Assembly: GCA_040256005.1 (NCBI GenBank)
Contig: JBDZWC010000005.1
Coordinates: forward strand, 1 to 50,250
Origin: Deinococcaceae bacterium
GTDB taxonomy: Bacteria; Deinococcota; Deinococci; Deinococcales; Trueperaceae
Length of the DNA: 50,250 bases
Reading direction: 5' to 3'
Positions 13,917 to 43,621 of this stretch are shown here, piece by piece; the first letter of the stretch is position 1, and each line of letters starts with the position of its first letter. Made by a program: the position numbers and the translations under genes. Below the pieces are notes generated by a model. That model made no database searches. It worked only from the letters and a program-made list of their open reading frames with translations, and was not told the origin of the DNA.

Positions 13917-14912
13917 ATGTCGAAAGTACGTCGTCTCTTCTTCGCTGCCCTGATAGGTGTAGCGCTGACACCTCAGGCGTTCGCCCAGTCGGACGAGCTG
14001 CCCGTCGTCAACGCCGCCATGGAGGCAGTGGGCACCTTCTCCTGGATCGTCCACGCCATGGACTACTTCGGCACGGACACCGCGAACGGCATCGATGTCG
14101 TCGGCACCTCTTACGCCAGCAAACAAGCCACCGAGATCGCGCTGCGCAGCGGCGAAGCGGACGTCAAGGTGGACGACTTCCTGGCTCCGGTGCTGTTGCG
14201 CCAGGCCGGGATACAGGCGAGCGGCATCTACCCGTACGCCACGGCGGTGGGTGGCCTGATGGTCCCGGCGGACTCCGAGATCCAGGGGATACAGGACCTC
14301 GACGGCAAGACCATCGCCGCCGGGGCCCTGCGCGACAAGAGCATCCTGATCCTGCGCACGCTGACGATCTCCGAGTACGGGTTCGACGTGGGCGACAGCC
14401 AGGTGGTGCAAGCCGCCCCGCCGCTGATGATGGAGCTGACCGCCTCCGGCGAGGTGGACGCCTCACTGCCGTTGTGGCACTGGGTCGCCCGCATGGAGGC
14501 CGCCGGGGTGGCGCGCGAGATCATGAGCGTCGCGGACATGCTGGAGCAGCTCGGCCTGCCTCGCAACCTGCCGAACCTGGTGATCGTGGCGCGCGACGAC
14601 ATGCCAGACGAGCTCAAGACCGCGTTCATCGCCACGTTGCAGGACACGTTCGAGACCATGCTCGCCACACCGACTGACGACCCGTTCTGGCAGACGATCC
14701 TCGACGAGGAGCTCTACTCGCTGCCCGACCCCAGCCAGTTCCCCCAGGTCGTGGAGCGCTGGAAGGCCGGCACGACCGACGAGTGGAACCAGGAGACGAT
14801 AGACGGCCTCGTCGACATGGTCGAACGTCTGGTGGAGCTCGCTGGTCCCGAGGCGGTGGGCGTGGAGAGCATCGACCCGGCCGCATACACCACAGAGTTC
14901 CTGCCTCGCTGA
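13917..14912 (+). CDS. pqqT: ABC substrate-binding protein, SsuA/NMT1-like, PqqT-like (candidate PQQ-binding)
   Basis: Signal peptide; GTFSW, DTANG, PYATAVGGLMVP, DKSILIL, APPL, GEVDA..W..VARMEAAG match my recollection of Methylorubrum PqqT; adjacent to PQQ dehydrogenases. Confidence 0.7.
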   Translation: MSKVRRLFFAALIGVALTPQAFAQSDELPVVNAAMEAVGTFSWIVHAMDYFGTDTANGIDVVGTSYASKQATEIALRSGEADVKVDDFLAPVLLRQAGIQASGIYPYATAVGGLMVPADSEIQGIQDLDGKTIAAGALRDKSILILRTLTISEYGFDVGDSQVVQAAPPLMMELTASGEVDASLPLWHWVARMEAAGVAREIMSVADMLEQLGLPRNLPNLVIVARDDMPDELKTAFIATLQDTFETMLATPTDDPFWQTILDEELYSLPDPSQFPQVVERWKAGTTDEWNQETIDGLVDMVERLVELAGPEAVGVESIDPAAYTTEFLPR

Positions 14913-14926
14913 GGTAGCTTCAGCGC

Positions 14927-15757
14927 ATGGCGGTAGAGGCCCACGACACGTCTCGGTCCGCCATGCGCTCCGGTGCGAAGGTGCGGCGAGAGGGAGGCGT
15001 CGGCGTCGCCCTGACGTTCGTCTCCTACCTCTCGCTGCTCGTCCTGTGGATCGTCGCGGCGCGACTACTCCCCAACCTCATCCCCGGCCCCGTCGAGACC
15101 CTCGAGTTCGTCGCGCGCGAGTACCGGCGCGGGGTGCTGCTGGGCCATCTGTGGATCACCACGCAGAGGGTCATCGTCGCGTTCGTCGTCGCCATGGTGG
15201 CAGGGGTAGCGATCGGGGCGGCCATGGGCGCCTCGAAACGGGTCGACGACCTGCTGCAGGGCTGGCTCGTCGTGCTACTCACGATCCCCCGCATCCTGCT
15301 CTTCGTCGTGGCCTACCTGACGCTCGGGCTCTCGGACACGGCGCTCGTGGTGGCACTCATCGTCACGATCATCCCCACCATCGTCGTCGCGATCCGCGAG
15401 GGCGCGAAGGCGATCGATCTTGCCCTGGTGGACATGGCGCGCGCCTTCCGCCGCTCCCGCACGGCCATCTGGCGGCACGTGGTGTTCCCGCAACTGCTCC
15501 CCTACGTCCTCGGCACCGCGCGCGGAGCGTTGGCGCTCTCGTGGAAGATGGTCGTGCTGGGTGAGCTTCTCGGCCGCACGTCCGGCGTGGGCTACCAGAT
15601 CTCCTTCTACTTCCAGTTCTTCAACATGACAGGCATCCTGGCCTACGGCGTGACGATGATGGTCCTCCTGGCCGTGGTCGACCTCGGTCTCATGGGCTGG
15701 CTCCAGCGCGCGGCGTTCAGATGGCGGGCCCCCGCCAGAACCAACGCGCTCGGATGA
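14927..15757 (+). CDS. ABC permease, NitT/TauT family
   Basis: Multiple TMs; EAA-like loop DMARAF...HVVFPQLLP; WKMVVLGELLG..SGVG. Confidence 0.9.
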   Translation: MAVEAHDTSRSAMRSGAKVRREGGVGVALTFVSYLSLLVLWIVAARLLPNLIPGPVETLEFVAREYRRGVLLGHLWITTQRVIVAFVVAMVAGVAIGAAMGASKRVDDLLQGWLVVLLTIPRILLFVVAYLTLGLSDTALVVALIVTIIPTIVVAIREGAKAIDLALVDMARAFRRSRTAIWRHVVFPQLLPYVLGTARGALALSWKMVVLGELLGRTSGVGYQISFYFQFFNMTGILAYGVTMMVLLAVVDLGLMGWLQRAAFRWRAPARTNALG

Positions 15758-41743: not shown

Positions 41744-41960
41744 CTGCTCAGGTCTCCTCCGGGGTGCTGCCGGGCGCGCGAAACGCGTCTGGCAGGGGAT
41801 TCTCGTGGCCGGGGCCGGTGGGCTGGATGGTATATCATCCGGCCCGCCGAAGCCCTTCGGCGCGCTTCATCGACCGCCAACCTTCGCGGCGGCGATATAT
41901 CGAACGCCCCGAGACCTCGCTAAGGCTAGTCTTGGGACGTAAGTCAAGGGTAAGTGAGCC

Positions 41961-42629
41961 ATGCGGATCCTCTTGTTGGAAGACAACGACGACATCGGGT
42001 TGGCCCTGGCCGAGGCTCTTAGGCACGAGCGCTACGACGTCACCTGGGTGAAGACCGACGCGGGCGCGTCGCGCGCGGCCGCCGAGAGGCACTACGACCT
42101 CGCCGTGCTGGACGTCATGATCGGTCCCGACGACGATGCTGGCTTCCGGCTCGCCAGCCAGCTGCGCGAGGCCGGCTTCGCCGGAAGCGTGCTCTTCGTC
42201 AGCGCCAGGGATGCCGAGGCCGACAGGGTCCGTGGCCTGGACCTGGGCGGCGATGACTACCTCGTCAAGCCGTTCGGGCTGGCGGAGTTCCTGGCCCGCG
42301 TCCGCGCCCTGGTGCGGCGCCACGCCCAGACGCGGACCACGTTGCTGGACCGCAAACCACTGCAGGTCGACCTCGCGAACCGGCGGATCTCATGGGAGGA
42401 CAGGGAGGTCCAGCTCTCCGCCAGGGAGTTCGAGATGTTGGAGCTCTTCGCCCTCTACCCCGAGAGGGTCTTCACCGCCGACGAGCTGCAGGAGCGCCTC
42501 TTCCCGGAGGCCGGCTCGGGCCCCAGGGTCGTGCGTGTCTACGTCAGCCAACTCAGGCACAAGGTCGCGGGTGAGGTCATCGCGACCGTACCGGGCGGCT
42601 ACCGGTTGGGTCCGGGCCAGACGACATGA
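41961..42629 (+). CDS. OmpR-family response regulator
   Basis: ILLLEDND, VLDVM, GGDDYLVKPF, winged helix VRVYVSQLRHK..GGYRL. Confidence 0.93.
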   Translation: MRILLLEDNDDIGLALAEALRHERYDVTWVKTDAGASRAAAERHYDLAVLDVMIGPDDDAGFRLASQLREAGFAGSVLFVSARDAEADRVRGLDLGGDDYLVKPFGLAEFLARVRALVRRHAQTRTTLLDRKPLQVDLANRRISWEDREVQLSAREFEMLELFALYPERVFTADELQERLFPEAGSGPRVVRVYVSQLRHKVAGEVIATVPGGYRLGPGQTT

Positions 42630-43621
42630 GCCTCAGGCGGTCCGTCTTCCTGGCGGTGATGACGGCCGTGCTGGCCGCCACGTTGCTCGAGGGCGTCCTG
42701 GACGTCGGCCTGGAGGCGCTGGGTGACGCCTTCGGCAGCGGCGAGGGCTCGCCCGCCCGTCTCCTGCTGGACCTGGTGGACGTGCCGCTGTTCGCGCTCC
42801 TCGGTCTGGCGCTCGCGTACTGGCTGTCACGGCGCATCGCCCGCCCCCTGAGCAGGCTCACGAGCGCCAACCGGCAGCTGGCGACCGCCGGGCGCGTGGA
42901 GACGCTCAACGTTCCGCCGGGCGGCGATGAGCTGTCCGAGCTGGTCTCGAGCTTCAACGCCATGGCGCGGGCCGTCGACGAGCACGTGGAGCGCGAACGC
43001 GCCTTCACCCGCTACGCCTCGCACGAGCTGAGGACCCCGCTTTCCGCCATGCGCCTGCAACTGGAGGCCGTGCGGTTGGGCCACAAGCCCGCCGAGGCGA
43101 CGTTGCCGGTCCTGGAGAAGAACGTCAAGCGCATGGAGGAGGTGCTGGGCGCGCTCCTGGCGCTGGCCAGGTCCGACGATTCGGCGCCCGAGCGCGCGCC
43201 GCTCATGCCGCTGCTCCAGGAGTCGCTGGCCGCCATGCCGGAGGAGCAGCGTGGTCGCGTGGAACTGCTGGGCTCTCTGGGCAGCACCTACGTCGCACAG
43301 CCCCGCCTGGTGCAGCAGGCCGTGGAGAACCTCGTCGAGAACGCTCTGCTGCACGGCGGCGGCACCGCCAGGGTGGAGGTCGGGGAAACGGCGGGGCGCC
43401 TGTGGGTGCGAGTGGCTGACGAGGGCCCCGGCGTGCCCATCGAATCTCTACCGCGTCTCACGGAGCCGTTCTTCCGCGTCGACCCGACCACCAACGGCAT
43501 GGGCCTCGGCCTGGCGTTCGTCTCGCATGTCGCGCGGGCGCTGGGTGGCGAGCTCGTCCTCAACAGCGAGGGGGGCGGCATGGCCGCCACCCTCACACTG
43601 CCCGAAGCGACCCCGGCCTAA
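42626..43621 (+). CDS. HAMP sensor histidine kinase
   Basis: Two TMs, HAMP (RIARPL..DELSELVSSFNAM), ASHELRTPL, NLVENAL, DEGPG, GMGLGL. Confidence 0.92.
   Translation: MSLRRSVFLAVMTAVLAATLLEGVLDVGLEALGDAFGSGEGSPARLLLDLVDVPLFALLGLALAYWLSRRIARPLSRLTSANRQLATAGRVETLNVPPGGDELSELVSSFNAMARAVDEHVERERAFTRYASHELRTPLSAMRLQLEAVRLGHKPAEATLPVLEKNVKRMEEVLGALLALARSDDSAPERAPLMPLLQESLAAMPEEQRGRVELLGSLGSTYVAQPRLVQQAVENLVENALLHGGGTARVEVGETAGRLWVRVADEGPGVPIESLPRLTEPFFRVDPTTNGMGLGLAFVSHVARALGGELVLNSEGGGMAATLTLPEATPA

Follow-up and report, generated by a model that had tools for sequence, protein, structure and literature searches.

We analysed a 50,250-nt stretch of DNA (hereafter the window), i.e., the entire contig G000:C29 of a genome (G000, 96.8% complete) whose host belongs, judged by its sequences, to the Trueperaceae. 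Between positions 13917 and 43621 it carries a cluster of genes for three dehydrogenases of the pyrroloquinoline quinone (PQQ) type, named ADH1 to ADH3 here, together with putative helper proteins. The cluster is real, conserved and coherent, and it varies known PQQ/lanthanide dehydrogenase systems. Taken as a whole, it probably encodes a periplasmic respiratory module that takes PQQ from outside, loads it with proteins fusing a XoxJ-type (J) domain to a LutA-like domain, contains a predicted lanthanide enzyme (ADH3) and passes electrons via cytochromes to oxidases. The novelty of the cluster stems less from the lineage by itself than from the fusion of XoxJ to LutA, the pairing of ADH1 with ADH2, the protein X367 and the regulon.

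Every part of the cluster is an intact reading frame with high GC content at third codon positions. A plus-strand run extends from the pqqT-like gene to ADH2, a minus-strand run (read from the right) from the lutA-like gene to the VWA gene, and a two-component system is oriented divergently from lutA:

13917..14912, plus strand: PqqT-like periplasmic binding protein; PDB matches solely 9B1U, 9B1V and 9OOZ (E 4e-22)
14927..15757, plus strand: permease of an ATP-binding cassette (ABC) importer, SsuC/TauC type (PF00528); adjoins pqqT in relatives
15754..16539, plus strand: ABC importer ATPase (PF00005); open frame from 15721
16700..17509, plus strand: cytochrome fusion A, Lipoprotein_15 plus monoheme cytochrome c (PF03640, PF13442); one CxxCH; start after a ribosome-binding site
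17598..19355, plus strand: ADH1, PQQ dehydrogenase without vicinal cysteines, Asp/Gln/Asp/Asp at the metal positions; TIGR03075 342 bits, below the cut-off of 480
19505..21508, plus strand: XoxJ plus LutA-like fusion 1; TIGR03871 166.8 bits (below 212.15) and a TIGR03863 match; best profile match XoxJ (6ONP)
21517..23253, plus strand: ADH2, ADH1 paralogue in which Gly replaces the catalytic Asp; candidate pseudoenzyme (alignment, tree, substitution rates)
23204..27559, minus strand: BatA-VWA-GATase1-like protein of about 1450 aa (domain matches)
27556..28434, minus strand: DUF58 protein (PF01882)
28431..29462, minus strand: MoxR AAA+ ATPase (PF07726, PF17863)
29485..30987, minus strand: unknown 500-aa protein of the MoxR module; no Pfam match, seven homologues (27-39%) in loci that also hold moxR
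31119..33113, minus strand: XoxJ plus LutA-like fusion 2, start approximate; TIGR03871 212.8 bits (above the cut-off of 212.15) and a TIGR03863 match
33136..35157, minus strand: ADH3, PQQ dehydrogenase that has both vicinal cysteines and Glu/Asn/Asp/Asp as metal ligands; its clade is the sister of XoxF (TIGR03075, 4MAE, tree)
35258..36193, minus strand: cytochrome fusion B, Lipoprotein_15 plus monoheme cytochrome c (domain matches); one CxxCH
36455..37372, minus strand: ABC-2 permease in the lutF/pedC position (PF01061); TIGR01247 139.7 and TIGR03861 117.4 bits (cut-off 241.35), both under cut-off
37369..38229, minus strand: ABC ATPase in the lutE/pedB position; TIGR01188 290.5 and TIGR03864 223.2 bits (cut-off 302.25), both under cut-off
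38255..39358, minus strand: X367, acidic all-helical protein that fits no known family; its N-terminus resembles a signal peptide, and it occupies the lutC/lutD slot (composition, homologues, model)
39348..40391, minus strand: YVTN beta-propeller in the lutB/pedA2 position; TIGR03866 223.8 bits, below the cut-off of 287.3
40448..41743, minus strand: LutA/PedA1-like binding protein; TIGR03863 (140 bits, below the cut-off of 413.6) is the sole NCBIfam match at E 1e-10
41961..42629, plus strand: OmpR-type response regulator (PF00072, PF00486); adjoins lutA in nine other genomes
42626..43621, plus strand: HAMP histidine kinase with merely a short loop between its two hydrophobic segments (domain matches)

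The initial annotation had described one contiguous set of parts in a probable Deinococcota genome, including PqqT-type PQQ capture and XoxJ fusions with a binding protein. All named parts are indeed present and contiguous with the expected domains, while the conserved gene at 29485-30987 and two operator sites (see below) had been missed. The proposed capture protein is upheld by its PDB matches and pocket, the fusions by their TIGR03871 and 6ONP matches and their conservation in relatives. The host assignment agrees with a 96% identical ADH3 in a Trueperaceae record, which is also the sister of ADH3 in our tree. The GC content of the cluster (0.689) equals that of the genome (0.689); since it is flat, we rejected a horizontal island in G000. 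Synteny extends across the Trueperaceae, i.e., the same gene set and order is found in G043, G062, G063 and G057, in G046 and G045 up to the ends of their contigs, and partially in many further genomes. The arrangement is therefore not due to chance.

By analogy with validated enzymes, ADH3 is predicted to use a lanthanide. It passes the TIGR03075 cut-off (499.6 vs. 480.05 bits), has XoxF structures as best PDB matches (4MAE first, E 1e-134) and aligns residue by residue with the metal ligands of 4MAE and 6DAM. That is, it shows vicinal Cys-Cys, Glu, Asn, Asp and the extra Asp, i.e., the 2D-1E-1N set of validated lanthanide enzymes. For residue positions of dehydrogenases we use what we take to be MxaF numbering. 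A quick tree was built from 74 rows after removal of one fragment; it includes 16 of 120 ADH3 homologues and few references, with no MxaF. In it, ADH3 falls into a 33-row clade with support 100, which is sister to an 8-row clade of XoxF5 and other proteobacterial references and thus lies outside the XoxF clade. Records named Acidobacteria and Firmicutes are among the 120 homologues listed, so the ADH3 clade is not confined to Deinococcota; published surveys of PQQ dehydrogenases may already have given it a type number (e.g., type 8). At the positions that contact PQQ, ADH3 retains Glu, Arg, Thr, Trp, Arg and Asn. At two Trp positions of the pocket, it carries Gly and Asp instead. The pocket position after the metal Asn is Trp in XoxF5 and in both paralogues from the second locus (next paragraph) and Gly in ADH3, which suggests larger substrates. 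An alignment of ADH3 (A4) also revealed two additional cysteines beside the metal Asn (C258 and C283), invariant in 93 of 93 rows, which likely form a clade-specific disulfide.

The triplet of cytochrome, dehydrogenase and fusion occurs four times in the genome. Two further sets are located in a second locus (G000:C109:22150-33628, L001), where both dehydrogenases show the full canonical 2D-1E-1N ligands, which brings G000 to five dehydrogenases in total, along with four each of the XoxJ and cytochrome fusions. The C109 sets flank a gene that we labelled sigma-70 from reading its sequence.

The N-terminal half of the fusions is a XoxJ domain (best PDB match of the profile 6ONP, E 4e-59, followed by MxaJ in 9ISM), while the C-terminal half is 30-34% like the locus's own lutA in G000 and matches TIGR03863 weakly. 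When scoring three candidates per genome, the profile of the fusion matched in 37 of 127 other genomes of the host family (f1), 6 of 68 of family f5 and 0 of 125 of family f2. The fused form is found in at least 33 of the 44 genomes matched, whereas the two halves are adjacent separate genes in G297, G299, G319, G344, G064 and G096 as well as at one locus each of G013 and G122. In G301 (L063), the fused copy is the sole lutA of the fetched lut-like operon. Both halves are spanned by 51 of the best 150 representatives, and no full-length fusion is found among 145 plasmid records. This pattern of fusion and fission suggests a link of LutA-type proteins to dehydrogenase maturation. A predicted complex between the LutA-like half of fusion 2 and ADH3 (score 0.08, mark 0.32) was weighed neither for nor against.

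The pairing with the enzymes recurs. For the ADH1 type, a cytochrome fusion lies upstream in 17/17 rows and a J-LutA fusion downstream in 16/17, the remaining one being at a locus edge. For Cys-Cys enzymes, a scripted count, with one mislabelled row reassigned, gives a J domain or J-LutA fusion downstream in 20 of 23 rows. The Lipoprotein_15 domain of the cytochrome fusions carries two invariant cysteines. The best 60 of 125 PDB matches belong mostly to CcoP, bc1, nitrite-reductase and c6 cytochromes; the name XoxG does not occur among them, and none matches the Lipoprotein_15 half. A stand-alone Lipoprotein_15 protein without cytochrome domain is encoded at G000:C51:8108-8812.

With regard to PQQ capture, the PqqT-like protein retains T41, G112, D141 and K142 of 9B1U, i.e., four of the six pocket residues named in the available part of PMC11331073. 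In contrast to PqqT, N143 is replaced by Ser and E111 by Val; moreover, PqqT itself was described from a PQQ producer, while the present host shows neither PQQ synthesis nor PqqU. That is, G000 gives no match for pqqE or pqqC, although the pqqC model does match in relatives, and no PF00593 TonB receptor and thus none of LutH/PqqU type, with positive controls responding. As the genome is 96.8% complete, these absences, as well as those of methenyl-tetrahydromethanopterin (H4MPT) cyclohydrolase (MCH) and FTHFS, are probable rather than proven.

Importer and dehydrogenase co-occur in the 128 genomes of the family: both are found in 44, the dehydrogenase only in 5, the importer only in 6 and neither in 73, counts which ignore kinship although kin are not independent. 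Here, dehydrogenases were called by TIGR03075 at E 1e-30 (49/128 genomes, 23 of them over the cut-off), and 50/128 genomes have a PqqT-like protein. pqqC exceeds its cut-off in 5/128 genomes only and falls short of it in 40 of the 44 genomes with both parts. In G122, one of the few family genomes with pqqC, this gene (C313:8520-9191; L031, L057) shares its locus with pqqT, lutA, xoxJ and a dehydrogenase from the XoxF-side clade. Throughout the phylum, PQQ dehydrogenases occur in 101 of 363 genomes, including 42 of 125 of family f2. The enzymes are thus common in Deinococcota, such that the lineage alone is only a modest surprise, whereas just two families of the phylum have the helper set. Family f5 holds a compact version of the system (L058-L066 in G297, G299, G300, G301, G319 and G344), whose fetched stretches are without MoxR or two-component system; in G299 and G300, a regulator that reads as IclR-like is found beside the compact locus.

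The order of binding protein, YVTN propeller, slot gene, ATPase and permease equals that of LutABEF/PedA1A2BC (compared with L048 and published tables). It is found near a Roseobacteraceae dehydrogenase as well, and the lutA-lutB-X-lutE-lutF order is kept in two families. According to the accessible parts of PMC7391723 and PMC12997753, LutABEF and PedA1A2BC are tied to lanthanide transport. Compared to lutABCDEFGH of M. extorquens and pedA1A2BC of P. putida, the cluster shares this order and a two-component system beside it; in contrast, the locus is without lutG, lutH and lanM, four extra LutA-like domains are fused to XoxJ, and the slot is filled by X367 (367 aa), which has no BLAST match to the L048 slot gene.

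X367 is 27% Asp+Glu, and its mature part is without Lys. Its family comprises 87 homologues, some of which are named from Alphaproteobacteria, and f5 carries divergent copies in this slot; G130, E133, E136, E201, E204 and C243 are invariant. The all-helical model (pLDDT 95.3), compared with a view to metal chaperones of the LanD or imelysin-EfeO type, has no Foldseek match at E 0.001 or better; EfeO/EfeM reach TM 0.20-0.27, and the best Z of 12.1 over 101 residues is to generic four-helix bundles. Comparison with the Atlas gave unnamed clusters (0.87-0.90) and, as a lead only, DUF5059 (0.77). No noteworthy PDB sequence match, meaningful Pfam match or plasmid match was found. From its position and acidity, we guess that X367 could be a metal chaperone.

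The remaining two dehydrogenases deviate from this scheme. In ADH1-type rows, Cys-Cys is absent in 18/18, Asp replaces Glu in 18/18 and Gln replaces Asn in 16/18, while the Asp-x-Asp motif is kept in all 18. ADH2 follows ADH1 and its fusion wherever the locus reaches that far and has no cytochrome of its own. The catalytic Asp is missing in all nine ADH2 orthologues (Gly in four, Ser in three, Ala and Glu in one each), and ADH2 is thus probably not a standard dehydrogenase. Ratios of nonsynonymous to synonymous substitution rates (dN/dS) are 0.18-0.26 for ADH2 and 0.24-0.29 for ADH1 (four pairs each; crude counts on high-GC DNA); given its low values, ADH2 is kept by purifying selection. Both proteins match 4MH1, 4CVB and 7WMD (E 1e-54 to 1e-37), i.e., sorbose, alcohol and DepA-type dehydrogenases that presumably lack the disulfide as well. 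They match quinohemoprotein alcohol dehydrogenases slightly better, form their own long-branched clade and differ by Gln for the metal Asn and, in ADH2, the lost catalytic Asp. A wider radiation of cysteine-less PQQ-type proteins is found in Trueperaceae (L014:5491, L023:10035 and 12272, L071, L073, L075, L090-L093), where the metal Glu is changed to Pro, Phe, Tyr, Val or Lys and the metal Asn to Val, Gly or Met. It mostly adjoins pqqT and/or MoxR modules, and its members are possibly metal-free or non-catalytic quinoproteins.

The MoxR/DUF58/VWA module lies within 6 kb of 24/33 cysteine-less enzymes vs. 1/23 Cys-Cys enzymes. The count covers loci that were selected for their dehydrogenase (L001, L005-L075), with one mislabelled ADH2 row reassigned and two rows truncated at contig ends left out. 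It includes neither the VWA-chosen loci L076-L094 nor the window itself, in which ADH3 is 3.5 kb from moxR. A strict tie of the module to cysteine-less enzymes is weakened by the VWA orthologue of genus g23, which lies away from PQQ genes. In g23 (L076-L082), the module adjoins, in place of PQQ genes, a 900-aa exported protein with a deacetylase-like motif, as seen in the three loci inspected. The Pfam domains match the MxaR/S/C/L class at domain level. The available text of PMC12276312 describes MxaJ as PQQ-loading chaperone and MxaR/S as aiding Ca insertion. The J-domain chaperone and the MoxR/DUF58/VWA set next to dehydrogenases are shared with the MxaFI system; in contrast, no MxaI/A/K was recognised, the VWA protein is of 1450-aa BatA type, and the module tracks cysteine-less enzymes and can sit apart from PQQ genes.

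A shared palindromic operator, GGGAC-N4-GTCCC, relates the cluster to other genes, with two sites inside it:

16616..16629, no strand: operator with one mismatch, upstream of cytochrome fusion A (motif scan)
41934..41947, no strand: degenerate copy between lutA and the regulator; exact copies there in G062, G063 and G039

In 77 loci (1.35 Mb), we found 25 sites compared to 1-2 for seven other spacers, and 22/25 are at most 450 bp upstream of genes of the system. Only 1/19 permuted-arm controls exceeds the operator (57 sites; also high genome-wide). The best sites in G000 (C43:8318, C239:11726, C235:14838, C32:655, C192:4560, C205:12248 and an exact C109 site at 27103) precede the C109 locus, coxB, an NDH-2-type oxidoreductase, cytochrome fusion A, a V-ATPase, a multiheme cytochrome, a multicopper oxidase, a second COX1 and, as an odd member, chorismate synthase. 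Targets recur in four of five relatives (G046, G062, G076 and G013; 16 loci, 12 of their proteins scanned). Given the sites at oxidase, NDH-2 and ATPase genes, the cluster is placed in a respiratory regulon, which supports electron flow to oxidases. We take the operator to resemble the mycobacterial DosR box, and a motif that we likewise assume yields three NarL/LuxR-type candidates for its regulator. A CRP/FNR-type regulator near the cluster (window 6259-6942) is a further candidate.

By analogy with known systems, we infer the following sequence of events. PQQ would cross the outer layer by an unexplained route and be held by the PqqT-type importer protein. The J domain of the fusion would then load it into the adjacent dehydrogenase, as MxaJ does for MxaF, while the lut-like operon may handle or supply the lanthanide for ADH3 and the C109 enzymes. 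The fused cytochrome would re-oxidise reduced PQQ and pass electrons to caa3- or cbb3-like oxidases. From the present work only, ADH1 would function with another geometry of its metal site, probably with help from the MoxR/VWA module; ADH2 would be a non-catalytic or re-purposed partner of ADH1, and substrates would be alcohols, polyols or aldehydes larger than methanol. A bolder version is conceivable but less likely than not: the fusion as a two-handed loader of PQQ (by one domain) and lanthanide (by the other) for each enzyme, an undescribed rare-earth site of three Asp and one Gln in ADH1, ADH2 as dead partner or PQQ store, and X367 as a new multi-site lanthanide chaperone.

Several observations weigh against the respiratory lanthanide module. 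All four lut/ped-like genes miss the cut-offs of TIGR03863/03866/03864/03861, and the ATPase and permease score higher on the DrrA/DrrB models. In the importer protein, E111 is changed and the N143 side-chain contact is lost, and with no TonB receptor found, there is no explanation for how PQQ and metal pass the outer membrane. No PQQ gene accompanies the MoxR module in 7/7 fetched loci of genus g23. For the operator, G107 shows no excess (1 site vs. 2 controls), exact sites are hardly enriched genome-wide in G000 (7 vs. 2-6 for other spacers), and no site was found upstream of ADH3's own operon. The co-occurrence counts include related, non-independent genomes. Moreover, lanthanide use can be predicted only imperfectly from the second Asp by itself, as stated in the accessible part of bioRxiv 10.64898/2026.07.14.738520.

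These points also bear on the initial annotation, which had proposed a complete system for lanthanide/PQQ enzymes. Completeness in the proteobacterial sense is not borne out, i.e., no PQQ synthesis, LutH/PqqU-type receptor and no H4MPT or FTHFS formaldehyde route were found. Of the three enzymes, ADH3 alone carries the canonical lanthanide ligands, and it is a sister of XoxF rather than a XoxF; the site of ADH1 is non-canonical, and ADH2 is without catalytic base. Similarly, the lut-like operon agrees in gene order but not in model scores, and the MoxR module, whose domains match the MxaR/S/C/L class, is generic and found mainly with cysteine-less enzymes.

Among alternatives, PQQ could be used together with calcium or some other ordinary metal, and the lut-like operon could be an ABC-2 exporter for enzyme or cofactor handling. 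The low Lut/Ped and higher DrrA/B scores, the absence of a TonB receptor in G000 and the Glu ligand missing in two of three enzymes would fit. So would the tie of MoxR/VWA to Ca insertion in MxaF (PMC12276312, available part) and the possible misprediction of metals from sequence motifs (bioRxiv 10.64898/2026.07.14.738520, accessible part). We nevertheless consider this unlikely, given the full ligand set of validated lanthanide standards in ADH3 and both C109 enzymes, their branching next to XoxF and the operon order conserved in two families.

Less probable by a clear step are 'empty' quinoproteins with another cofactor or none, and an importer for a different solute. All three dehydrogenases match TIGR04528 (acido-empty-quinoprotein) below its cut-off, ADH1 and ADH2 alter the Glu and Arg positions contacting PQQ in MxaF (in the numbering we assume), the metal Glu is Pro, Phe, Tyr or Lys in many paralogues of the family, and PQQ synthesis genes were not found in G000. 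In contrast, PqqT is the sole PDB match of the importer protein and K142 is kept, ADH3 retains its six PQQ-contact positions, and G122 has pqqC inside the same locus. A XoxF-type methylotrophy island for methanol growth, which the XoxF structures as best PDB matches and the label 'lanthanide-dependent methanol dehydrogenase' given by the Joint Genome Institute to 6 of the 120 listed ADH3 homologues might suggest, is the hardest to credit, since ADH3 lies outside the XoxF5 clade, shares at most 43% identity with plasmid-borne relatives and has the altered Trp pocket, and neither MCH nor FTHFS is found in G000 while controls responded (the glutathione route was not searched).

Regarding other features of the window, a 15-bp hairpin behind ADH1 is a possible attenuator, with four hairpins found compared to 4.9 in shuffles and hence weak:

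19393..19428, plus strand: 15-bp hairpin

Rfam RNA and tRNA searches of the window returned none, and promoter and terminator scans stayed at chance level. A LexA-like repressor is encoded near the cluster (7223-7858), and the plus-strand PF10712 match at 2-697 is probably an antisense shadow of what we take to be dnaK. A sugar ABC importer with GH43, GH1 and GH2 hydrolases adjoins the cluster (43634-50214), and GH43 and GH1 orthologues sit between two PQQ dehydrogenases in G043:C11 (L028). These neighbours hint at sugar or polyol substrates.

The nearest known systems are xoxFGJ and exaF-pedH of Methylorubrum extorquens and Pseudomonas putida. They share the 8-blade PQQ dehydrogenase with Cys-Cys and 2D-1E-1N ligands as well as a monoheme cytochrome c and a XoxJ domain alongside. 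The present cluster differs by the sister clade and altered pocket of ADH3, the fusions of cytochrome to Lipoprotein_15 and of XoxJ to a LutA-like domain, and the lack of detected pqq genes. The initial annotation knew of no characterised example in this lineage; our literature search found no description of this system or of its helper fusions by title or start of abstract, with most subscription journals outside its coverage. 'Deinococ' is absent from the available text of PMC12124388 and PMC10875860, and the supplements of bioRxiv 10.64898/2026.07.10.737718 and 10.64898/2026.07.14.738520 may list Deinococcota genomes or the ADH3 clade. As PQQ scavenging and lanthanide-motif enzymes are already published to span many phyla (PMC12124388 and bioRxiv 10.64898/2026.07.10.737718, in their accessible parts), the surprise of the present finding is limited.

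The cluster points to rare-earth enzymology in Deinococcota, where none reported was found in our literature search, and is a probable example of PQQ scavenging in a genome where no TonB receptor was detected. According to the available part of PMC12276312, the maturation of XoxF has yet to be elucidated, and how lanthanides enter XoxF-type enzymes is the open question on which the fusion bears. X367 and the ADH1 site are candidates for new lanthanide-binding proteins, and the compact version in the second Deinococcota family suits laboratory work. The natural XoxJ-LutA-like fusion, paired with each enzyme, offers one polypeptide on which metal delivery by LutA-type proteins can be tested. If the two-handed loader is true, proteins of the LutA/PedA1 family would act in dehydrogenase metallation and not just in binding for a transporter.

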